Assembly (NCBI GenBank): GCA_022813865.1
Contig: JALDZX010000043.1
Coordinates: forward strand, 124,001-185,813
Source: Xylographa opegraphella
Lineage: Eukaryota
Length of the DNA: 61,813 nt
Direction: 5' to 3'
The translations under genes were made by a program, and so were the position numbers. Below the pieces are notes generated by a model. It was not told the DNA's origin. It worked only from the letters and a program-made list of their open reading frames with translations, and did no database searches. Below are positions 21,022 through 37,847 of this stretch, piece after piece (the stretch's first letter is position 1; the number at the start of each line of letters is the position of its first letter).

Positions 21022-23569
21022 ATGGCCACTCCAGATCGATCGGAAGGCATTGCCTCTGATGTCGGCCGTACCACCGCCTATGAGGGCGACGAGAAGGCCG
21101 GCTACGGCCATTCCGCCAGCATCTCCAAGAACTCCTCCGGCAGTGAATCGCCCAAGGCCGTCAACGAGAAAGCCGATTATGGAATGGCCGCCCCCGCCTA
21201 CGACGAGGAGGAGGCTGGACACACCGGCAAGCTGCGCGTCGAGAACGCCGAACAGCTCGTCACCAGCGTTCTCTCCGTCGACGACGACCCCACCCTGAAT
21301 GCGTGGACCTTTCGCATGTGGTTTCTCGGTATGCTCCGTCGACGACTCCCCCCCCGGCCCCCAATCCTCCGCCGGTGAGCCGACCATCTAACCATCGTCG
21401 CAGGTCTTGGGCTCTCGCTGTTCGGCTCCGTGCTGTCGACCATCTACTACTTCAAACCGCAGACCGTTTTCGTCTCCGTCATTTTCTTGACCATCTGGAG
21501 TTACATCCTCGGCGAGATCATGGCGAAGATCATCCCGAAGACGGGCTTCATCGGTCGGTGGTTCAATCCTCACAAGTTCAACCACAAGGAGCATGCCGCC
21601 ATTGTCATCATGTCGTCCGCCGCCGCCACCTGCGCGCTCGGGACCGAGGTGCTCGCGGTGCAACGTCTGTACTACAGCGCCTCCCCGAACGCGGGCGCCT
21701 CCATCTTTCTCCTCTTCTCCTCGCAGTGCTTGGGATACGGCATCGCCGGACTCATGCGCAAAACGCTCGTCTACCCGACCAAGATGCTGTACCCCATCAA
21801 TCTGCCCTTGAACACCCTGCTCGAGACCCTCCACCGCGACAAGACGGAGACCGCCCGCCGTCTCAAGCTGTTCTACATCATGTTCTGCGTCCTCTTCGTG
21901 TGGGAGGCCTTCCCCGAGTACATCATGCCGCTCATGACCGGCGTCAGCATTTTCTGCCTTGCCAAGCGGGACAGCCTCGTCTTCACCAACCTCTTCGGTG
22001 GCACGAACGGAAACGAAGGTCTCGGCTTCCTTTCGTGGTGTATGGATTGGCAGTACATTGCGGGAACCCAGTCGCCACTCTGGTTCCCGCTCCAGACGTT
22101 GGTCAACAACCTCGTCGGATACCTCCTGTGTATCTGTGTGTTCATGGGCGTTTACTACATGAACATCTGGAACGCCCAAGACTTCCCCTTCCTCTCCCAG
22201 CTGTTGTTCTCCAACACTTCCAACGGCACCTCCTACGTCGAGTATAACCAGACCGCGCTCCTCGATTCCAACAACGTGCTCGACCCGGCCATGCTGGACG
22301 TTCTCGGCATCCCCTACTTCGCGACCACGTACGCGACCTACATCTTGAGCACCAACCTCGCCATCACCGCGACCTTCACGCACATGTTCCTCTGGAACTA
22401 CAAGGACATCAGCACGGCCTGGTCCTTCGCCTCGTGGACCAATATCAAGAGGGCCATGAACGTCGAGAACTGGAAATTCTGGAAGGGCGACAAGCAGACC
22501 ATCAGTCCGGAGGAGGAGGCGGCCTTGGACCCTCACTACCGGCTCATGCTGGTCTACAAGGACGCCCCGAACTGGTGGTATGGTGCCATTCTGGTTTTCT
22601 CCATCGTCGTGGGTTTGGTCTGTCTCTACGAGGTCGATTCCACGCTGCCATGGTGGGCCTTTTTCGTCGCATGCGGCCTCGCGGTCATTTGCATCTTGTT
22701 CTTCGGTGCGCAGTACGCCATCACTGGGTTTCAGTTCATCATCCAACCGATCATCCAGATGATTGGAGGATACCTGCACCCCGGCTACCCCGTCGCCAAC
22801 ATGTACTTCACTCTGTTCGGCTACAATGCCGTCGTGCAGGGGCAGCTGCTGCTCAAGGACCTCAAGATTGCTCAATACGCCAAGCTCCCGCCGCGGGTCA
22901 CCTTCACCGCTCAGTTGATCGGGACGCTCGTGGGCGCCATCTTCAACTACGTCATGATGATTTCCATCGTGGACAACCAGCGTGACATTTTACTGTCCAT
23001 CGAAGGAACCAACATCTGGTCCGGACAAAACGTCCAGCAGTACAACTCCCAGGCGATCGCCTGGGGCGGTCTGGCCAAGTACATGTTCAGCGTCGGCGGT
23101 CGCTACGAATGGGTGACGCTGGCCTTCCTCGTCGGCTTCGCCATCCCTCTCCCCTTCTACTTCCTCCACCGCCTCTTCCCGCGAGCCGGTTTCTGGTACT
23201 GGAACACGGCCATCATGACCTACTACATCGGCTGGCTGTGCGTCGGGATCAACTCCTCCATTTTGACCTACTTCGCCGTCGGCTTCGCGTCCCAATGGTT
23301 TATGCGCAAGTACCACCCCGAATGGTTCGTCAAGTACAACTACATCTTGTCGGCCGCCATGGATGGAGGCACCCAAGTGCTGGTCTTCATCTTCACCTTT
23401 GCCGTCGATGGTGGCAGCGGTGCGTCGGTCACCTTCCCGACATACTGGGGCAACAACGGTGGAACTGGGGACGGAATGAATTACGACTACTGTAAGTCTG
23501 GCCTGTCATCGTGCTATCCACCCTCACTGACCCGACCGATCAGGCATGTTCAACCCCGCCAACGGCTAA
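21022..23569 (+). CDS. Oligopeptide transporter (OPT family); introns about 21329-21403 and 23492-23543
   Basis: DDDPTLNAWTFRMWFLG, FNPHKFNHKEHA, LDPHYRLMLVYKDAPNWWY, DLKIAQYAKLPPR and KYNYILSAAMDGGT; many TM segments. Confidence 0.93.
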
Positions 23570-24328
23570 GTAATAGACGATGGAAGTTGATGACCTGGCT
23601 GGCGCGATGGTGGGATGATGTTTCGATAGTTGTTTGCCATGAAAAATAATACACCAATGGTTCAATCTGACTTGACATACATGAAGTATCTCAGCAGTGA
23701 TATATGCTTGAACGGATTTGAATCAAGCTGCCAATTACGCTTGCAAGCCTCTGACCCCCATGACCCCTTATGAGTTGAAATGTGCCGATAATGACATGCT
23801 GCGCTACCTTCGCCTCCGCTCCTGGCGCTTCACATTCGGTCGTCGTGAGGATTTTACTCGACAGTCCTTCGTAGCTGAGACCGACAAAGGGTCGATCTAG
23901 GGTGCGTGTGGGTGTCGTCGGTTTATTGTGCTGATTATGATTGCAAGTACTGCAACTATCGTAGACTAGATTTCATAAATACCATAAGCGCATTGGCCTT
24001 CTTGGGAGGAAACTTTTACGGATCTACGATGAATTCCCCATTCGATCATGAGCCTGGGAAATATAGGTATATGATACCAAATTGGGCGTACAAGTGCTCC
24101 CTACAGGCTCGATTGGGCAAAGTGGAACTTGCACGTGACACACAAAATCGCGCCACCGCCCGCCAAGAGAGTGTTTGCTTTTCTTTCACCGGCACCACAA
24201 AAACCGTTCTTCGCAAACACCACCGTTCTCGACCCTCGCAACTCCCAACCACCCGCACATATTTCTCCACCGCATCACCACAGTATATCGCTCGAGTCCA
24301 CCATCGACGACTCTGTCCGACCATCAAA

Positions 24329-24547
24329 ATGGGAAACGGCGCCAAAGCAGCCTCGAAGCGGGAGCGCAACGCCAAAGAGGCCAACACGGGCGGCAAGTCG
24401 CAGCTGAAGAGCAACGCGGCGGCCAAGACGCTCATCTGCAAGAACTGCAAGCAGGACTGGCAGGGCACCACGAACAAGGCCACCCTCGAGCAGCACGCCA
24501 GTTCCCGACACCCGAAGCTGAAGTACGAGGACTGCTTTGATAATTGA
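24329..24547 (+). CDS. Small DUF1909/At2g23090-like zinc-binding protein (72 aa)
   Basis: MGNGAKAASKRERNAK...KSQLKSNAAAKTLICKNCKQ...LEQHASSRHPK..YEDCF: 4F5-like N-terminus plus CxxC..H..H; good ATG context (AAAATGG). Confidence 0.85.
   Translation: MGNGAKAASKRERNAKEANTGGKSQLKSNAAAKTLICKNCKQDWQGTTNKATLEQHASSRHPKLKYEDCFDN

Positions 24548-25723: not shown

Positions 25724-25769
<46 letters not shown>
25724..25769. repeat. (GA)n microsatellite
   Basis: Uninterrupted GA run of about 23 units. Confidence 0.95.
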
Positions 25770-25772
<3 letters not shown>

Positions 25773-26013: not shown

Positions 26014-26241
26014 CTGAATCCCTGCATACAGTCTCTCTCACACAAAGTGCGAGGCAAAAGCACCAGCAACGCTCCGCACTCCATACAAGTCCAACGCCAG
26101 CCCTCTGCACCCGGTTAAGATCCTACCGAAAGACCTTCTGAATCCTGCATACAATCTCCCTCACACAAAGGTGCGAGGCCAAAGCACCAGCAACGCTCCG
26201 CACTCCTTTCCCGCTACCAATCCACCACCGGCCCTCCGCAC
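26014..26241. repeat. Imperfect direct repeat, two copies (26014-26110 and 26138-26241); copy 2 overlaps the viperin C-terminal codons
   Basis: Both copies read CTGAATCC(C)TGCATACA.TCTC.CTCACACAAAG(G)TGCGAGGC.AAAGCACCAGCAACGCTCCGCACTCC, about 124 nt apart. Confidence 0.9.
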
Positions 26242-27251
26242 TCCTGCCCCGTGCCGCCGCGCGTCCAATCGTACAGACCGCCTCGCGAGACAAAGCTCTC
26301 CTGGTCCCAAAACACCCTCGCCAACGCGGCCTTGACGCCGACCTGGAGGATCGGCGGCGACGGCTGCCGGCCGTCACGGTCGAGGAAACCCATGTACTCG
26401 TCCAGGATGAGGTACGACTTCGCCATGAGCCGGTTCGGCTCGGCCACGAAGGACTTCTGGCCCCGGTGCCGGGCGCAGAAGCGCTCGTACTGCTCGTCCG
26501 AGATCTGGAACTTGCGCACGTCCCGCAGCGTCGTGGCCGAGTCGTTCTCGCCCGCCACCATGAGCACCTGGAAGCACTTCCACCGGAACGGCTGCAGCAC
26601 CGAGATCCAGCCGTTCATGTCCTCCTCGTGGTTGAGCTGGCAGACCACCGTGTTGAGTTTGAAGCGGATGCCGTACTCAAGGCACCATGCCGCGATCCGG
26701 GTCAGCTTCCGCACGTTGTCGCCACTACCGCGCCCGATGGCGATGTTGGTGGCCTCGTTGAAGGAGTCGCACGACACGGCGAGGATGTCGATGTACGGCC
26801 CGTACTTCTTCAGAAAGGCCTCGTTCACCAGACTGCCGTTCGTCACGATCGACACGGACTCGAGCTGCAGCGTTTCTTTGCAGTAGGCGATCATGTGTCC
26901 GAGGAAGTCCCGGTACAGGAACGGCTCGCCGCCGGCGAAGTTGAGCTTCTTCATCCCTGCTTTGGCGAGGAGGGCCAAGCCGCGTTTGGCTTCTTCCTCG
27001 GGCATTCGGTAGGACGTGGTGGCCGTATGGAAGCAGAAGCCGCAAGTCTTGTTGCATTGGCGGGTGAAGTGGTAGTTGACAGATATGGGCGTGGCGATGT
27101 TTGGTGTGGGAGGTTTGGAGCGACCGGTGGCAATTACAGGACTGCCCTGCCTCCTAAGCGGCTGCCTGCGTATGTACCATCTCCACGAGGCGAACATGAC
27201 TACCACTACCGCGAGCGATGAAATGAAGCCCACATACTGGAGGAGGACCAT
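26214..27251 (-). CDS. RSAD2: Viperin (RSAD2-like radical SAM ddhNTP synthase), 345 aa, intronless, with N-terminal membrane anchor
   Basis: SVNYHFTRQCNKTCGFCFHTA (CxxxCxxC), KKLNFAGGEPFL, SVSIVTNGS, DILAVSCDSF, FKLNTVV, RWKCFQVL..GEN, EPNRLMAKSYLILDEYM, F..RGGLYDW and terminal Trp (VDW*): the full viperin motif set. First ATG is at 27251, followed by the hydrophobic segment VLLQYVGFISSLAVVVVMFASW. Confidence 0.95.
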   Translation of the reverse strand: MVLLQYVGFISSLAVVVVMFASWRWYIRRQPLRRQGSPVIATGRSKPPTPNIATPISVNYHFTRQCNKTCGFCFHTATTSYRMPEEEAKRGLALLAKAGMKKLNFAGGEPFLYRDFLGHMIAYCKETLQLESVSIVTNGSLVNEAFLKKYGPYIDILAVSCDSFNEATNIAIGRGSGDNVRKLTRIAAWCLEYGIRFKLNTVVCQLNHEEDMNGWISVLQPFRWKCFQVLMVAGENDSATTLRDVRKFQISDEQYERFCARHRGQKSFVAEPNRLMAKSYLILDEYMGFLDRDGRQPSPPILQVGVKAALARVFWDQESFVSRGGLYDWTRGGTGQECGGPVVDW

Positions 27252-27648
27252 CTCTTCACAGGGGACTGCTTGTCTACCGGAAAGAGAGGGCAGGGTGAGC
27301 TGTGGAGTAGTGCGAAACAGCAACGTATGGTCCGTTTTCCAGCGGCTCCTGGCTGTTTTAACATCACATTATAAGTAGAGGCAGATGGGTTGTTAAGAAA
27401 AGAACGAGACGTTTGATGCTTTTTCTAGAAGTTACACGGGAGTAGGGATTCCTGCGCATGAGAACGAAGCGGACAGACAGGTTTGCTATCGCGATCGTGC
27501 ATCAGATGAAAACGACAAACAAGTAATTCCACCATAACAAAGGTAGCTCTTGCGAACACATTCCAGCGCAGTTACCAAACCCCGTCCGTCTTTCGCTGAA
27601 GATAGGTGAATACGCTTGCACAACACTTTCGAACTTATTCTAAGCCTC
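27252..27648. promoter_or_regulatory. Putative bidirectional promoter between viperin and the NMP kinase
   Basis: Only 397 bp separate the two divergent ATGs. TTATAA near 27370 and a palindromic ATCGCGAT near 27488. Confidence 0.5.
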
Positions 27649-28431
27649 ATGATTGTGGGAACGAAGCCAGAAGTACATGTATTGATTATAGGTATACAAC
27701 CCTGCTTTGAAAACGCCCGTCTAATTTGTGGTAGGTGCCCCAGCTTCTGGCAAAGGTACGCTTTGCAAGAAGCTTTCGGAGGACTACGGCTTCTACCATC
27801 TTTCTGTGGGCGACCTCATCCGACAAGCACTTAACGATCGAACAAATCACGCTTTAGACGAAGCTCGCGAAGAGGCCATGAAACGCATGAAAGAGGGAAC
27901 GCTACTCGCAACAGAAGTCTTGGTCCCCATCATGACAGCAGAGATTGGCAAGCAAAGATTATCAGGACATCGGCGGTTCCTGATCGATGGCTTTCCCAGG
28001 CGTCTGGACCAAGCGGCTTCCTTTGCTCCTCATGTAGGACGGTCTACCGATGGCGTTGACAAGCATGAGCTGACCACACGCCAAGATGATCAAACCAATG
28101 CTTGTCATCCACGTCCAATGCCCCAGGGATGTAGCTCTGAATCGATATTTGAGCCGTAAACTACCTGGACGACTTGATGATGACGAGGAGTTATTTCACC
28201 GGAGGTATCACCACTACTTGCGACATAACGATGACATCTCGGCGCATTACCGTGCAATGGGTGTTCTTGTGGAGGTTCGGATCAGTCCCTCTGAAACTTG
28301 ATCCAGAAATGTGTGTTGATTGTGCCATGTAGATTGACTCAAGTGGCGATACCCAAAGTACATATGAGCGGCTTGTGCAGCTCCTCAGAGAGCACGAAAT
28401 ATGGAAGATGTTTCATGAAACTGCAGGCTAG
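27649..28431 (+). CDS. Nucleoside monophosphate kinase (adenylate/UMP-CMP kinase family, short LID), 209 aa; exons 27649-27691, 27735-28033, 28086-28274, 28333-28431
   Basis: Three GT..AG introns join into one open frame: VLIIGAPASGKGTLC (P-loop), HLSVGDLIR, FLIDGFPRRLDQA, short LID RYLSRKLPGRLDDDEELFHRR, then VLVEIDSSG...TAG. Confidence 0.9.
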
Positions 28432-28951: not shown

Positions 28952-29584
28952 ATGCGACCTGTCATGCCTATTTCAAAAAACAAAATCCTCGAAGTCGAGC
29001 GTAAATTTGTCTGCAATCCACGTACCACAAGCATCATTCATTCAAACAACGGCTTCCCTCGTCTACCAAATCTCACTTTCAAAGGGCGGCACACCTTCGA
29101 AGACATCTATTACGACTTCAACGATGTCTGCTTCTCGCGAGGAATCTGGATACGAAAGCGCAATGGAACATGGCAGGCCAAGATTCGGCGGGGAGGCGAT
29201 TTCACTAATTCACAATTTGACGAAATCGACGGAGCGGAGGATGTTGGAGCTCTGGTGCAGAAGCTGCACGTGGACGCACCTATCAAAGCAGAGAACTTTG
29301 GACTGGACGAACTCGCCAGATTCGTCACCCGAAGAGACGCATGGAAGGTAGCGGATGTCTATGAGGTCGTGGTTGATAATACGGACTTTGGACATTCGGT
29401 TGGTGAGGTGGAGATGCAGCAAACTCTCGAGGCGGATAGTAGGGATGATGGAACCGTTGCCATTCAAATGGATGCCCGAATCAAAGAGTTCATGCAGAAG
29501 CATTCCTGGGCATTCCCTCCAGGTAAAGTCGTAGGAAAGCTATCTGCATATTTCGAATGGGCACGAGCAAACAAAGGTAGTTGA
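28952..29584 (+). CDS. CYTH/triphosphate tunnel metalloenzyme, thiamine-triphosphatase-like
   Basis: LEVERKF (ExExK), FEDIYYD, WIRKRNG.WQAK, VVVDNTDFGHSVGEVE and GKLSAYF match the ThTPase-type CYTH layout. Confidence 0.87.
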   Translation: MRPVMPISKNKILEVERKFVCNPRTTSIIHSNNGFPRLPNLTFKGRHTFEDIYYDFNDVCFSRGIWIRKRNGTWQAKIRRGGDFTNSQFDEIDGAEDVGALVQKLHVDAPIKAENFGLDELARFVTRRDAWKVADVYEVVVDNTDFGHSVGEVEMQQTLEADSRDDGTVAIQMDARIKEFMQKHSWAFPPGKVVGKLSAYFEWARANKGS

Positions 29585-29783: not shown

Positions 29784-32700
29784 TCAATACTCAAAGTCGT
29801 CGTCGACCGCAGGGCCCTTTTGCTTCGTGACACTTTCCTGCTTTCGATACATCTCGACCACCATTCTGCTTCCTGTGGCTTGGTCGGGTTTTTTGTCGTC
29901 CCTCTTCTTGATGAAGCGGGGAAAGCGTAGACTGATTCCTTTGTGAGTTGCATCGTTCAGCACATCACTTCCAGCCTTGTATCGGGGAGACAGGGTCAGA
30001 TCCGCAGTCTTAACCTCCCAAACGAAACGTGGCTCGAACCATACATCTGGTTGGTCTTTATTCACCGATGAATGTGTATAAAACGGTTTGGGGCGGTCGA
30101 TGGTATGTTGTGAGAGCTCTGAGTGAAGATCTTCTAGTATAGCTTCCGAAAAGCCGGTACCTATGTTACAGACCGTCTCATAGGTCTCCTTCGATGCGTT
30201 GAAGCAACCTAAAAGGAATGCACCATATACACGTGTACGCTTGCCTTTACCAAAGTAGGCTCCCAGTACTACTAGGTCTAGAGAATCACCAATTCCCGAC
30301 AAGTAGTCCTTCTTCACCTTTAGCCAGTTTCGAGACCGCTTGCTAGGCTCGTAGCCACTTTCTTCAGTATCCAGCATCTTAATCATCAGTCCTTCACAGG
30401 ACGCTTTGACACTCTCTTCGAGCAAAGTTTGAATTTCGTCGAGTTCCGAGGTGTCGCCATACTGAGCGAAGCGGAACTCGCCCTCTGCTTCGTCAAATGC
30501 CCTTTTAAGAATCTCACGACGCTCGCGCAGCGACTTGTTCACGATAGACTAGCAAATTAGCATGTCCCTTCCAAAGGACGGAAAGCGTACTGACCTCGCC
30601 ATTGTAGAATAGCATATCGAAAGCAAAAACGCAGACTTTGACTTTCACATCCTCGACCTTTACGTCCTTCCGCTTTCGAGTCATGAGTTGTTGAAACGGG
30701 AGAACTTTCTTCTCCACGACATCCCACCCAACAGTCTCACAGTCGAGCACAAAGCTTTTGGTGTCTTTTTTGATCCACGTATCTAGTTTTTCTAGAATAT
30801 CCGGATACTTTTTGGACAAATCTTCAGAGTTTCTGGAAAAAATGGCAGACAACCCTTTCACACCTGTCTTTGAAAGCGGCAGGCTACTTCCGTACTGCTG
30901 TAGCGAGTCTTCTGCGACGTAGTGTATCTGTGCTCGTTCACCATCATATTTGTACTCGCAGGTAAAGTTCTTTCCTTCAAATCGATCAAGGACCTCGGTG
31001 ATAGATTTAGTTGGCTTTGCCAACATAGGCTTCAGCGGCACACCGGGCTGAAGTTTACAGTTCTCTCGTAGATGAAAGATTCCATGCTCTTGCATTGCAG
31101 GGATGATGACTTCGTAATTAGGTAATTCACTAGAGAAATCAGAACTGAGACAGAAAGTGGATCTGTGTAAACACTAACCTATAGACTGTTTTGAGAATGG
31201 CTTCTCCTTTTGCAAGCTGCTCACTGCTTGGAACCTTGGCACCTTTCTCTTCGGTCTCATGTATGACCATTGCATGAGCCAAAGCTACCAAGACAGTCTT
31301 CTCCGCAAGACCAAGCCTTAGTTTTCCTTCCAGGAATCGGATGATGAATTTCGCTTCACTAGCACCACTTTTATCCTTCGTTATATCCACTCCTTTGTTC
31401 CCTTTACCTGCAATAGCAACATCGGCTGCAGAGAGAAGCTTCTTGATGCCATCCACCTTGCGCCCCTGTGATCCGCTGCCTTGTAATATAGCTATACCCA
31501 TGAGGCCATCAAGAACACCCCTTATGGTCAAGGCTTTTGGTTTGAACATTGTTGGCTGGTTAGAACGACTCTTGGCTGCCACGAGTCCCAGATCTCCTAT
31601 CTCGTTTTGATCGGCTTTGATTACTGCCAAGCTCCGGCCCGTGCTTTCCCCAATTGCTTTCATGATCAATGACTCTCCTATGCCAAGCTCAATACCAGCA
31701 TAATCAGCAGCAAGTTTGTTGATCATGAGCTGAACAGTTGGAAGTAGGTCTCGTGGAGTAAGTCTCAGTACCTGCCGAAGAAACAATGAACAATGAGCGG
31801 AAATTATGAGTCGCTTAGTTGTTAGTTCGATTAAGGAAAATGTTGTACATAGAGCTGCGTACGGAACAGGCTCACCAGCTTTCCAATCCGGATATGGATC
31901 TTTACCCTGACTCTTAAGAGTAGACTGCACCTTTTCTCGAGCTTTGGCAGCGACTTCATGCTCCTCGTCGTCCTCCGAGTCTTCATGTTCTTCAGCTTCT
32001 AGGTCGACCTCTACGACGTCTTCGCTTTGAGTTTGGGACAGCTTAGTACGTCGTGCGGACTCCAACGTTATTGTATCCGCTGCATTTTCTGTAGATCGCC
32101 CGCTGCTATCTGCGGATTCCAGGTCAGGTTTCGAACTGAGTTCCTTTTGCTCGGGATACTCTCCCTCAGCTTTATCGTTGGTAGCTGATGTTGTCACCTC
32201 AGTATGTTGGCTCGAACACGATGATTCCTTTGCCGAGGGGGATGCCTCACTGTCAAGGGCATTCTTGATAGGTTGCGTTCGATTGTGTCGATATCTCTTC
32301 CGTACAGGTTCCTCATCCTCGTCATCTTCAACGTCTTTTGTGTGAGTATCTTTGAGCGACTTGGCGGACGGTTTTGCAGTTGTCCCACGTGAGCTCCGGA
32401 CCTTTCGTTTGGAAGTACCGTCGGTCTTGTGGCCTGAACAGAATAACCCAGTTAATGCTTGTGAAGGTAGAGTCATCCTCGTGCGTGAAGTATACGAGTT
32501 ATTTACGACAGATTCTTACCATTTGATCCCGACGTCTTCACAGCTTCCTTTATATCTTCCGTATTTAGACTCGGGATGGGCTTCTTCTCATCTTCGTCCT
32601 CCATCTTCAACTCTTGACCTGGCTCTATTTGCACGTTCGGAGTGGCTTTATCAAGGCTGCCTACGCCATCCACATGTTCATGTTTCAGCTTTTCGATCGC

Positions 32701-33562: not shown

Positions 33563-35379
33563 TTAAGGTGTACATCTTCCAGTAAATCGCGGGTAAAGGC
33601 AGCAGTCTCTCACCGTATATCTTCCACACAGCCATGCAAGAAATCGCTCAAGTCCAAGCCCGTAGCCACCATGTGGTGATGTTCCATACCTGAGAGACTG
33701 TCAGCATCTGAGAAGTACCATGTGGATTGGGCTGGAACAAACTTGCGCTGGTCCGTGTACCAATAGTATGGCTCTGGATCAATCCCCTCCCTATTATAGG
33801 CAGCAAGAAGCTCATCATAGTCTGTCATGCGCATACTTCCCCCAACAATCTCGCCGACGCCGGGCATAAGGCAATCCACGCTTTCCGTGACACGGAGATC
33901 GTTCTGATCTTTCTGCATATAAAAGGCTTTTATCTCTACAGGAAAATGTGTTAGAAAGATAGGTCGATTGATGATGTCCGTCATTCTTCGCTCGGCAGCT
34001 TCAGCGATATCGTCTCCAAACTTGTGTGTTTCGCCCTCTTCATTCTTGATATCATGTTCCACAAGCCAGTCTATGGCATCTGCGTATTTCATGCGCATGA
34101 AGGGGCGTTCAGGGGCTTTAAAGTCCCTGTTGAGCTCGTAGACAAGTTTCGCAATCTTTACGTCGCCAAGTATTATGTCAATAACACTACACATCACGAC
34201 TTCTAAGTGATCCAGAAGATCATCAAACGTAATGAAATCTAGTTCTGCCTCGATATGGGTGTACTCTGAAAGGTGGCGACGAGTATGGGCCTTCTCTGCT
34301 CGGAAGGACGGTGCAACGCAGAAGACATTGCCAAGAGAAGCCAAACAAGTCTCAAGATACAACTGAGATGATTGGGTAAGGTATGCCTGCTGTCCGTAAT
34401 ACTCCAGGCTGAACAAGGTCGCGCCGCCTTCCACTTGCGTTTGGACCATACAGGGTGGTGTCACCTCCAGACATTGCGGTTTTATCTCTTCGTAACTATG
34501 ACGGAAGGCCCGGAGCACAGCTGCTCGGACTTTCATGACCGATGAAGAGACCTCCCCGCGAAGTACAAGGTGCCGGTTGTCGAGGAGTGTCTGCGGATCT
34601 GAGTCTTTGGCGACTCTGGTAGTTATAGCTTCCTTATCGCCCGCAGCTTTACCTATAACCTCGAAGTAGTCCGCATGTAGTTCCCGATCATCGGGCGCAT
34701 GTTGTTTCGGTGGAACTTCCCACATTTCTCCAAAGATTTGAATAGAAGTCTCCAAGGTGAGGGTCATTGCGTCGTAAGTCTGTACTAAGGGGCCGGTCAG
34801 AACGCATTGAAGAAAACCATAGCCATCTTGGAGTGTAATGAAGATGACGTCTTTCTGGGATCGTAGTCGATGTATGCGTCCGCAGACTCGTACTCTCGAG
34901 CCTCGGCCATCACTATAGTCCACATCGTTCTTGCTATCACCGCTCCGCAATTTCACCAATTTCGGGTCCTTTTCGTTTAGATATATGTGTACTGGTTTTG
35001 GTAGTAGGGGGTCTTGAACAATCTTGACTTTCTTAGCCTCTTCAAGCACCAGCTTCCTCTTGTCAGCTTCCTCTTTTTCTCGAACAGCGAGTTGATCTCC
35101 CCGAGCGGCTTTTCTTTGATGTTGTTCGTAAAGGTTGGTGGCTTTTTTATATGCAGACTTTGTAGCTATTTTCCATTCTAGCCTAGCTGCAGGATCGCCA
35201 TCTTCACTCACTGGTCCAGTCTCGGACTTTCGTGTGAGGTATTGGGATCCGTCAGTGGGTGGATGGTGTATAAAGGCGTAAAGAAGACTTTTGTAGGGTG
35301 AAGAATCAGTACCGTTGGCTGTAGTATCATCTTTTCCAACATCTTCGTCAACGTAGACACTTTTGGATTGGGTTGCCAT
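33563..35379 (-). CDS. DED81: Cytosolic asparaginyl-tRNA synthetase; one intron near 33690-33742
   Basis: [12 protein letters not shown] fold, [66 protein letters not shown] and [11 protein letters not shown]. Confidence 0.95.
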
Positions 35380-37847
35380 ATCTGTTATAATTGCTGACCA
35401 GACCTATACAGGAATGAATTGACTCTTTTGCGTGAACGTTATGAGTCATTGTCATTGGTCAATGGAGACACAAACCGGATCGGTGTATCTATTCGCCGAA
35501 TCGTAGGGGCTGACAGTAGTGATAATCCATCACAATTACAGACAGAGATGACTGACCATGTAAGTCACTGCTACATCAGAAGATTTGTAAAGTTAGAGGC
35601 GCAGGACGATCACTCTGCCAATATGCAAGAGCCGAAAAATGAGTAAAGCAGTCGAATCGATATCGTAAAAGGGAGTCCAACAAGTCAGATCAACCAAGAC
35701 GACTATGACTAGTCTCTTAGGTCGCAGGCAAGAGGCCTATAAGCCGGACTGAATGGTCAGGTCTTCAAGAAGCACAAGTCCAGCAAGAGCTTTTACCAAG
35801 TCGCATGAAGCGCTTCTTCAGGTTTGCTTTTCCGATATTACATATGGATAGCTGATATACTAGATGTGCCAGAGCATCACCGAATGGTTGTCGATGTCCA
35901 ATGTTGAGCTGTACGTCTGAACACATTTTTCTGTTTGCTCTGGTATAGCCGATGAGCCCCGTCGGCTGGAGTAACCCGTCGTGTTGAGAAGCGTCTCACA
36001 TGGGGAGACGCTGCTCATGCTATGCCGGCGCCTTAGATTGGGAGAGTCTCTATACTGTGAGGTACCTTGAAAACCAACATACGCCTGCCGCGAAGTCTTC
36101 TTCGGCGAAGACCTCGTCAATCTGTCTCCGCCAAGGTTGCCATGCATCAAAGACGAGCGGCATAAATAGCACGACGGACGGAGGTATAGCGGCGAGTACT
36201 CCCGAGGCGAAATCTTCAGTTTATATCAGAAAAGCTTCCGTCCAATCGGGCGACGCTGGTCTGAATTCCAGGTAGTGGCATGATTACGAACTGTAACAGT
36301 GGATCCGCCTTGTAACCCGCAAGTACTAGATGTGCTGCGATGTTCGAGGCGCTTATTATCGGTGTTGCTTTCTCAATTTCAATAGTGCAGATTCGTCTAC
36401 TTGCATTGAGGGTCTTCCGCGACGATCTCCATGTCTCAGTATCAGACAATAAACTCACTATAATCGCGTGTCTGGCCTAATAAGGCTTCATGCTAATGTT
36501 TGTTGACGAGTACGCCGACACGCTCAGATGTCGATCCGCTCACATCGTCTGCTCTGTTGTCTACATTGTCGTATCTTGGGCTTGCCATTTGGCCTCACTA
36601 TGGCAGCCTACTAACGTTCCGATTTCTCTGGGAGTCAAGAGGCTGGGCTGTCACAAAGAACGTCCATATGGTAAGCCGTGGTAGCTGTCATCATCACTGG
36701 TGCCCGATCGTGGTCAGTACCTACATAAGGTAAGCTTCCTCTTCTCGTCGGCCATCTTGGACAGGTCCAAACAGGACCCATTGGTTGGCGCCGCCTTCAC
36801 AAATAACCTTGGATGGTGAAGAGTTTCCTGGTTTCTGACTATCTACCCTAATAGAAACCTCGTACTCATAGTGCTTTTTAACGAGGCGTATCGCCAATTG
36901 TGGTTGAAGGCCTCTTCCGTGCACCTACGGCCAACGAGACGTTATGGGAAATTATCGACGAACGTGATTTGGTAATTCGCAGCCCACTATTCTGCTATCG
37001 TCTAAGGTCGAAAATAATGCTATTAAAAAACAACTCGGGAATTTCGGTGGAAACACCGTTCCTCGTCGCTCGCTTTACTTTGAAGGGACAGCTTGGCCTC
37101 TTACCTCTCACTTATGAAGACTTTGTTAGAGCCATCAGTGTGACCTTGACCGTCCTGTCTAAGAAGTTTTATGAAATTCACACCTTGGAGATCGGCTTCA
37201 CGTTTCCGCACAACGGGGGTTAGATCGGTCATTACTATTACACTGCGTTGGTAAAGTCATTGTTAAGGCTTTCGTCGGAATACAAAGAGCTTCGGACTCA
37301 CGGTTAATAAACGTCGGCAATCCGATCTTGCTCGACGTTACAACGCTTCTAGACTTCTATGCTACAGCGATGGAGACTTTGCGCTGGGCTCTCAAGTGGC
37401 AGACCTTACTGGCCGTGTGCCAGCCATTTTCTTGCTTCCCTAAACAAGCCTTTATTTATTGGTCTCTGGATCGCTTCAATTAAACATTTCACGATTTGAC
37501 ACTGTTGGTGACAGTGCTCTATAAGTTGCGAATCTGTAGGTCTTCTGCGTATATACTTCGTGTACCGTGCACAACGATAGAAAATTGACCATGTCTAGGA
37601 CCGAGCTAGTGATCTCAACGTTCAGACCCACATGATACTGCAACGACTGCTTATTCAAAGTTTACCGATATGAACCCAATCATTTACGCACGTTGAATAG
37701 TCAAGACGCTTCTAACATCTCAATCTACTCCAGCCTGCATATAAAAGCGCTGATAGAACATAATATCAGACAAAGTCCAGATGAATGACAGCAGCTTTGT
37801 GGCACTGGTCAAAACACCAGATTCGGCAAGTGAGTTGGCGGCTAAAG

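Follow-up and report, generated by a model that had tools for sequence, protein, structure and literature searches.

In vertebrates, the viperin gene RSAD2 and the kinase gene CMPK2 form a divergently arranged pair. In fungi, CMPK1-type kinases encoded beside UTP-preferring viperins have been read as a case of convergent evolution in the text of Shomar et al., 2023 (bioRxiv 10.1101/2023.09.13.557418), which also places a kinase within three genes of 70% of the viperins from fungi and metazoans. From the same text we take the role of the beta-8 loop, by which we recognise a viperin of the fungal UTP type (here FLDR). Supplementary tables aside, it mentions no lichen-type fungus, no head-to-head spacing, no introns and no CYTH neighbour. 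Our literature search on fungal viperin, ddhUTP and gene cluster found only this study and that of Culbertson & Levin, in which kinases go unmentioned. Here we describe a locus in a 61.8-kb stretch of DNA from Xylographa opegraphella (61,813 nucleotides in full, hereafter the window), where a viperin gene, a nucleotide kinase gene and a CYTH gene lie side by side. With a probability of roughly 70%, we read this locus as an accessory module for nucleotide analogues in a filamentous ascomycete, made of a UTP-type viperin, a Ura6/CMPK1-type kinase that would feed it and a probable CYTH partner.

The viperin gene is an intronless ORF on the minus strand (26214-27251, stop included), with its first ATG at 27251 and a product of 345 amino acids. 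The translation carries the radical-SAM motif CNKTCGFC, has a hydrophobic helix at the N terminus and ends in a Trp at the C terminus. Pfam Radical_SAM matches it (E 5.4e-18), and it scores 245.8 bits against NF038283, above the cut-off of 180; against TIGR04278 it reaches 372.7 bits (E 1.6e-111), under the 450-bit 'exception' cut-off of that model. In the PDB, the fungal viperin-like structures 6b4c/7n7i align at E 1.5e-134 (residues ~52/54-334) and mouse viperin 6q2p at E 1.1e-96 (residues 52-334). Within the beta-8 loop, FLDRDGRQPS of the window protein aligns with FLDRNGQQPS of Trichoderma virens; an Arg stands at the position of mouse Cys314 and the mouse insertion is absent, as in a UTP-type loop. 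By our own mapping, this FLDR Arg may be the Arg257 of the Shomar et al. text. The substrate is likely to be UTP rather than CTP; in view of its conserved FLDR loop and of how closely it resembles the T. virens enzyme, the protein would most likely convert UTP to the chain terminator ddhUTP.

Facing viperin on the plus strand, the kinase gene (27649-28431) has its ATG at 27649 and four exons, which join into a CDS of 630 nt encoding 209 amino acids. Exon 1 (27649-27691) starts at Met1 and ends on the first codon base of Gly15, which puts intron 1 in phase 1; exon 2 (27735-28033) encodes the P-loop GAPASGKGT, the NMP-binding segment HLSVGDLIR and LIDGFPR; exon 3 (28086-28274) encodes the short LID segment RYLSRKLPGRLDDDEELFHRRY, its arginines kept; exon 4 (28333-28431) includes the TAG stop. 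All three introns are of the GT..AG type (43, 52 and 58 nt), with branch-like CTAAT, CTGAC and TTGAT near their 3' ends. An earlier note, made from the letters of this DNA, had proposed just such a 209-residue protein spliced over three introns, and the joined product is indeed a 100% match to the public X. opegraphella protein P0004, "UMP-CMP kinase 1". The motifs it had picked out (GAPASGKGTLC, HLSVGDLIR, LIDGFPR and GRLDD) are all present in the translation, and the P-loop it had given as usual for Ura6, GGPGAGKGTQC, is what yeast Ura6 (1uky) reads at the aligned site.

Judged by its sequence, the kinase is a member of the ADK/UMP-CMP kinase fold family and not of the thymidylate-kinase type. 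PF00406 (ADK) matches exon 2 with an E of 1.6e-22, and thymidylate kinase PF02223, the CMPK2 type, was not among the six Pfam families that match this exon (E 0.01), so the kinase and CMPK2 cannot have a common origin. Exon 2 alone has yeast uridylate kinase 1uky as its best PDB match (E 6.5e-17), and exon 3 alone has TIGR01359 as its top model (E 9.8e-07). For the full kinase, the solved relatives rank in the order Ura6 (3.3e-28), AK1 (6.1e-26) and human UMP-CMP kinase (1e-24), and GAPASGKGT, GDLIR, DGFPR and RYLSR...GRLDD...RRY all align with Ura6. With AK1 scoring almost equal to Ura6, substrate specificity cannot be read from these letters.

The kinase is nevertheless diverged, as the earlier note had held: its top model, TIGR01359 (UMP-CMP kinase), gives it 117.4 bits, below the 207.6 cut-off, and three further members of its clade also stay below (132.7, 135.8 and 121.4 bits; 4/4 tested members sub-threshold), whereas both control UMP-CMP kinases (n=2) score above it, at 250 and 232.5 bits. 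A phylogeny of the 209-residue protein, which that note had suggested as a check, placed it in a 29-row fungal clade (SH-aLRT 96). In this tree of 93 rows, which contains neither fungal housekeeping Ura6 nor AK1 (the latter scoring near Ura6), the clade is nested in a group of 53 rows (SH-aLRT 99) that includes named UMP-CMP kinases, and the 40 rows of the adenylate-kinase type fall outside that group. When used as a query, the full kinase retrieved only 41 proteins at E 0.001, and its relatives beyond Xylographa come from scattered genera and share at most 45% identity over most of their length; this patchy spread and low identity are out of keeping with a housekeeping enzyme. Queried by tblastn with an adenylate kinase and two UMP-CMP kinase controls, the 61.8-kb window gave no locus but this one. 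For both the kinase and the CYTH protein, the ESM Atlas offered family-level leads only.

The start codons of viperin (27251) and the kinase (27649) diverge across a spacer of 397 bp (27252-27648), the distance that the earlier note had reported. An independent metagenome contig, L001, carries all three genes as well. There, viperin and kinase are likewise divergent, with a spacer of 309 bp (1584-1892), and three introns interrupt the kinase at positions that match those in the window, with equal phases in the two that were checked, intron 1 among them; viperin is 65% and CYTH 48% identical between the two loci. At both loci the kinase is directly adjacent to viperin, inside the three-gene distance of the published linkage. 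The other flank of L001 is a BTB gene that has no match anywhere in the window. Since L001 repeats both the divergent pair and the intron positions, the pairing goes beyond chance. From this conserved layout, the 397-bp spacer is probably a shared bidirectional promoter, and we propose on the same grounds that viperin and the kinase are co-expressed. When the two spacers were compared (27252-27648 of the window and 1584-1892 of L001), shared 8-11-mers were no commoner than in 300 shuffles. A second metagenome locus, L002, contains no more than a radical-SAM stretch of 26% identity and was set aside.

Around the cluster, the window encodes a housekeeping DNA ligase, an AsnRS and a SERF-like protein. 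Codon usage differs sharply between the genes: GC3 is 0.86 in viperin versus 0.50 in the kinase and 0.51 in CYTH. This gap, which L001 lacks, is a hint of unequal expression or of separate histories. Horizontal transfer of viperin, an idea prompted by the value of 0.86, was set aside because an OPT transporter gene 3 kb off also has a GC3 of 0.83.

The third gene (28952-29584), also on the plus strand, begins 520 bp 3' of the kinase and encodes a CYTH / triphosphate-tunnel protein of 210 amino acids followed by a stop. Pfam CYTH matches it with E 7.3e-05 and 23.1 bits, 0.1 bit short of the 23.2 cut-off, which is passed by its relatives P0153 (37.0 bits) and P0154 (30.2 bits). Its sequence matches in the PDB are mammalian thiamine triphosphatases only (E 8.2e-10), and the best folds for its structure model (pLDDT 89.1) are the mouse and human thiamine triphosphatases, ThTPase (TM 0.70-0.72, E 6e-13). 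Across an alignment of 11 sequences, E14, E16 and K18 of the ExExK motif are nearly invariant and the tunnel residues R68, R70, K77, R79, D142, E152 and E154 are invariant; an aromatic residue is mostly retained at the site of the thiamine triphosphatase Trp.

Adjacency of kinase and CYTH extends beyond the window and L001 to three other fungal records: consecutive locus tags in X. trunciseda (MMC11_002302 and MMC11_002303) and two merged gene models, Neofusicoccum ribis P0042 (kinase+CYTH) and P0170 (ADK+CYTH). Complete viperin-kinase-CYTH trios are found in the window and L001 only (n=2). The CYTH family is broader than the kinase clade, with 515 representatives at E 0.001, and its distribution roughly tracks fungal taxonomy, so that CYTH is maybe an ordinary gene kept close by synteny. 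We nonetheless count it as a probable third member of the cluster; its linkage to the kinase and viperin is directly visible, and any chemistry ascribed to it is a guess. Our literature search found no work tying viperin to CYTH, a triphosphate tunnel or thiamine triphosphatase.

How might such a module work? The kinase, as a diverged NMP kinase of the Ura6/CMPK1 type, would most likely raise local UDP and hence UTP for viperin, in the way that CMPK2 supplies CTP in vertebrates. Viperin would then turn UTP into ddhUTP, and the short divergent spacer would serve both genes as a promoter. CYTH, the probable third partner, would act on a triphosphate: it may cut back ddhUTP or hold it in check, or else remove a by-product. 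A more specific version is possible and, in our view, somewhat doubtful: the three genes might form a conserved three-enzyme unit in which the kinase feeds UTP, viperin converts it to ddhUTP and CYTH then has the ddh-nucleotide as its specific target, so as to protect the host's own polymerases or to begin the conversion into an exportable nucleoside.

The genes could also be a small biosynthetic cluster for a dephosphorylated, exported ddh-uridine-type nucleoside directed against competitors or partners, and not a cell-autonomous antiviral defence, which we consider unlikely. A kinase, a dehydratase and a phosphohydrolase do follow the logic of a nucleoside-analogue pathway, and the cluster is compact, patchy in fungi and moves as a unit. 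However, no transporter or regulator lies within it, its neighbours (DNA ligase, AsnRS, SERF-like protein) are housekeeping genes, and CYTH enzymes take off one phosphate or pyrophosphate, never all three.

More improbable again is a functional pair of an AK1-like kinase and CYTH that would make and break thiamine (or another small) triphosphate, with viperin a mere neighbour. Vertebrate AK1 is able to form thiamine triphosphate, which counts in favour of this pairing, as does its near-level score with Ura6. The same-strand order of the kinase and CYTH holds for the window, L001 and the two merged models, and X. trunciseda has the two genes under consecutive tags; moreover, the nearest CYTH structures are thiamine triphosphatases, whose Trp-site aromatic is mostly retained, and the plant kinase-TTM tandem 7z67 is among the CYTH fold matches. 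Yet both fully readable loci, the window and L001, also have viperin head-to-head with the kinase, and a link between fungal viperins and this type of kinase is drawn in the text of Shomar et al., 2023.

We give least credit to the kinase being a Ura6 orthologue with a housekeeping role that evolves fast in this lineage and stands beside viperin by chance. In favour of this, yeast Ura6 is its best solved relative, the public record calls it UMP-CMP kinase 1 and the 61.8-kb window lacks a second UMP/CMP kinase gene. Against it, the kinase reaches just 117 bits where two control UMP-CMP kinases pass 207.6; its relatives outside the genus come from scattered genera only, with identities of 45% or less across most of their length; the divergent viperin pairing and the intron positions repeat on L001 despite its different flank; and this type of kinase is tied to fungal viperins in the Shomar et al. 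text.

Reading the locus as an accessory viperin-kinase module, we return to the proposal of the earlier note that the kinase had been recruited independently of the vertebrate one. This proposal holds up: the kinase is of the ADK type with no PF02223 match, it falls in a diverged fungal clade and its pairing with viperin is repeated on L001. Because the window kinase and CMPK2 come from different kinase families, the layout is convergent. Independent recruitment is thus sound and supported, but it is not new, having been in print since Shomar et al., 2023, whose supplementary tables may list the window locus itself or CYTH neighbours. What the locus adds is a lichen-type fungus to the published pattern, in which viperin repeatedly gains a substrate-feeding kinase, drawn from different kinase families in each lineage. 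What deserves following up is the third gene: should CYTH truly be part of the module, it would provide a first role for this fungal CYTH family and show how the cell handles its own chain-terminating nucleotide, a matter unsettled across viperin systems. As the cluster is small, intron-poor and easily expressed, this chemistry is directly testable.

Compared with known systems, the window resembles the fungal systems in the text of Shomar et al., where a viperin with a UTP-type loop also lies beside a member of the UMP-CMP/adenylate kinase family. The viperin-like enzyme of Trichoderma virens (6b4c, 7n7i) has an FLDR loop of the same length as the window viperin, and both lack the Cys/Lys of the mouse CTP pocket; their N-terminal regions are unlike, and the activity of the window protein is a predicted one. 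Yeast Ura6 (1uky/1ukz) shares with the window kinase a short LID, the same arginines and the DGFPRxxDQA motif, but the window kinase has GAPASGKGT instead of GGPGAGKGT as its P-loop, scores about half of the cut-off of the UMP-CMP kinase model and is patchy among fungi. As for CYTH, the mammalian 25-kDa thiamine triphosphatase (3bhd, 3tvl, 5a64) provides its only solved sequence relatives and its best folds, at 24-27% identity; of the two, CYTH alone sits in a viperin-kinase cluster, and its substrate is putative. Arabidopsis TTM1 (7z67) likewise combines a P-loop kinase with a triphosphate-tunnel domain, but it does so in a single polypeptide, with another type of kinase and without viperin, and the match is weak (fold match rank 27, E 1.2e-06). 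An association of viperin with a triphosphate-handling domain is also seen in the four triphosphatase/cyclase fusions described in the Shomar et al. text, which gives neither the number of CYTH-type ones nor any word on fungal ones; these are one protein, whereas the window CYTH is a separate gene 3' of the kinase. Finally, in the vertebrate RSAD2-CMPK2 pair, as that text describes it, viperin adjoins a kinase for pyrimidine nucleotides, which supplies viperin with its substrate, just as we propose for the window pair. CMPK2, however, is of the thymidylate-kinase type and carries a mitochondrial N-terminal domain, whereas the window kinase has the ADK fold and no PF02223 match, and the nucleotide is CTP in vertebrates and likely UTP here.

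The viperin gene is intronless and lies at 26214-27251 on the minus strand (first ATG at 27251; 345 aa). Its product retains the CNKTCGFC radical-SAM motif and the terminal Trp and matched NF038283 at 245.8 bits (cut-off 180); the TIGR04278 match (E 1.6e-111) reached 372.7 bits, under that model's 450-bit cut-off. The solved fungal viperin (6b4c/7n7i) aligned to it at E about 1e-134 and mouse viperin at 1.1e-96. The loop FLDRDGRQPS is as long as FLDRNGQQPS in the fungal enzyme and is free of the mouse-type Cys/Lys. Just past the stop codon, two direct repeats of ~65-70 nt (26021-26089 and 26144-26213; 123-124 nt apart, 86-95% alike) may represent a 3'-UTR duplication, and a weaker, partial third copy (77%) at 26217-26251 overlaps the final viperin codons.

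The kinase gene reads in the opposite direction, on the plus strand, with its start codon at 27649 and thus 397 bp from that of viperin, the divergent spacing that the earlier note had claimed. As that note had also stated, the gene is broken by three introns: four exons (27649-27691, 27735-28033, 28086-28274 and 28333-28431), separated by GT..AG introns of 43, 52 and 58 nt, yield a 630-nt CDS and a 209-aa protein, identical letter for letter to a public protein (P0004) named 'cytidine monophosphate (UMP-CMP) kinase 1, cytosolic [Xylographa opegraphella]'. The main exon matched five related P-loop families besides Pfam ADK (1.6e-22), and the thymidylate-kinase family of CMPK2 was absent from its Pfam matches. 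Among solved structures, the full protein came closest to yeast uridylate kinase Ura6 (1uky, 3.3e-28), followed by AK1 (6.1e-26) and human UMP-CMP kinase (1e-24). All the motifs quoted in the earlier note are present, so that what it described is fully confirmed, and the P-loop, GDLIR, DGFPR and short-LID arginines line up with those of Ura6; the kinase therefore looks catalytically intact, judged by its motifs.

Sequence comparisons point to a diverged UMP-CMP-type enzyme. The top NCBIfam match of the kinase was the UMP-CMP kinase model TIGR01359, where its 117.4 bits fall well short of the 207.6-bit cut-off, which bears out the divergence proposed earlier; three further members of its clade scored 121.4-135.8 bits, so that 4/4 fell under the cut-off, while both control UMP-CMP kinases, from a plant (250 bits) and a ciliate (232.5 bits), exceeded it. 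For phylogeny, a quick IQ-TREE run of 93 rows combined the similarity-search proteins of 160-300 aa, the first 200 aa of P0042 (a Neofusicoccum ribis protein) and the spliced kinase of L001, an independent metagenome contig; shorter, longer and multi-domain matches were left out. The window kinase fell inside an all-fungal clade of 29 rows (SH-aLRT 96), nested in a 53-row group with named UMP-CMP kinases (SH-aLRT 99) and apart from 40 adenylate-kinase-type rows. The phylogeny suggested by the earlier note thus tentatively places the 209-aa protein on the UMP-CMP kinase side; because fungal housekeeping Ura6 and AK1 lie outside the sample, the tree points to the side of the family and not to the exact sister. 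With the whole kinase as query, only 41 proteins were recovered at E 0.001, four of them from Xylographa species; the other relatives, from scattered Dothideomycetes, Sordariomycetes and Leotiomycetes and from a few lichen fungi, were at most 45% identical over the greater part of their length. This patchy spread is at odds with an essential housekeeping role such as URA6 has in yeast.

The arrangement recurs on L001 (4455 bp), found in a single scan of metagenome contigs with viperin as query. Its viperin is 65% identical to that of the window, with the loop FLDREGRAPS, and a divergent kinase lies upstream, its ATG 309 bp from the viperin ATG. The kinase was modelled with three 46-nt GT..AG introns, whose positions coincide with those of the window in 3/3 cases and whose phases agree in both cases compared; the two proteins are 38% identical. 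The other flank of L001 encodes a BTB-domain protein and gave no tblastx match to the whole 61.8-kb window, and therefore the conserved unit is the cluster and not the wider neighbourhood. No motif common to the two intergenic spacers (27252-27648 in the window, 1584-1892 on L001) rose above shuffles; the putative promoter shared by viperin and kinase is thus proposed from layout only.

A third gene probably belongs to this conserved cluster. On the plus strand, 520 bp downstream of the kinase, a 210-aa ORF (28952-29584) encodes a CYTH protein whose Pfam match is weak (7.3e-05, 23.1 bits vs a cut-off of 23.2). Mammalian thiamine triphosphatases are its only solved sequence relatives (8.2e-10), and its structural model, of high confidence (pLDDT 89.1), best matched the mouse and human thiamine triphosphatases (TM 0.70-0.72), with archaeal tunnel enzymes and class IV cyclases ranking behind. 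Across 11 aligned sequences, the ExExK motif is conserved, as are the basic and acidic residues of the tunnel. On L001, a CYTH gene 48% identical to that of the window follows the kinase on the same strand; in X. trunciseda, the kinase and CYTH genes have consecutive locus tags, and in X. bjoerkii the two proteins come from equally long contigs. Two gene models look like merged neighbouring genes, hence kinase/CYTH adjacency on one strand: P0042 (410 aa) joins a kinase to a CYTH protein, and P0170, a representative protein of 839 aa, combines part of an ADK domain with a CYTH domain and a bZIP region whose weak match (E 0.00077) falls under the cut-off. A bZIP gene, if a real neighbour, could regulate the cluster in that organism. 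In a CYTH tree of 162 rows (only the similarity-search proteins 165-300 aa long, together with three slices), kinase-linked copies occur in at least three different subclades, and the linkage is therefore old or recurrent.

Codon usage is uneven across the cluster: GC3 is 0.86 in viperin, 0.50 in the kinase and 0.51 in CYTH; on L001 it lies at 0.56-0.59 in all three genes. Most long ORFs of the window range from 0.43 to 0.65, the other real-frame long ORF as extreme as viperin being a nearby OPT oligopeptide transporter (21379-23646; 0.83), which argues that the viperin value probably stems from codon bias linked to expression and not from a foreign source. This contrast cautions against presuming equal expression of the viperin/kinase pair. 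On the far side of viperin, a small plus-strand gene (24329-24541; 71 aa) encodes SERF-like N-terminal and zf-met2 domains; it is missing from the corresponding flank of L001, where the BTB gene stands instead. Between it and the viperin 3' end lies a (GA)n microsatellite, some 44 nt long (about 25727-25770). Downstream of CYTH, housekeeping genes on the minus strand encode an ATP-dependent DNA ligase (29787-32515, divided by introns into three ORFs) and an asparaginyl-tRNA synthetase (33613-35403). At the window end, an open frame (60819-61811, minus) resembles, by eye, a copia-type retrotransposon polymerase fragment.

The analysis thus establishes how the three genes are built and to which families they belong, that their catalytic motifs are intact and that their linkage is conserved. 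As to their working, viperin would, from its close homology, convert UTP to ddhUTP; the kinase, by analogy with CMPK2 and in line with the published reading, may raise the UDP/UTP supply near viperin; and the CYTH tunnel enzyme might, as a guess, act on ddhUTP or a related triphosphate, limiting self-harm or starting dephosphorylation. Plain synteny is the alternative to a functional CYTH link: against such a link stand the breadth of the CYTH family (515 representatives at E 0.001), its spread, which roughly tracks fungal taxonomy, and the number of complete viperin, kinase and CYTH trios read, which is two (the window and L001). Alternatively, the kinase-CYTH pair could work on thiamine triphosphate, or the locus could be a small gene cluster that makes a nucleoside for export. 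A literature search on viperin with CYTH, triphosphate-tunnel or thiamine-triphosphatase enzymes found nothing relevant.

According to the part of the text available from Shomar et al. 2023 (bioRxiv 10.1101/2023.09.13.557418), 70% of the viperin genes of fungi and metazoans have a nucleotide kinase no more than three genes away, and most of these kinases are CMPK2-like. Kinases of CMPK1 type next to UTP-preferring fungal viperins are interpreted there as convergent evolution, and the window viperin has the loop of this fungal UTP type. The window kinase differs from CMPK2 in matching Pfam ADK and not the thymidylate-kinase family. The earlier proposal of independent kinase recruitment is right and appears already in that part of the publication; the convergence reading is thus supported but not new, and the locus adds a lichen-type fungus to the published viperin and kinase pattern. 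In contrast to the same part of that text, which describes no third, CYTH gene, the locus has one, and this conserved thiamine-triphosphatase-like neighbour is the part of it that deserves attention.
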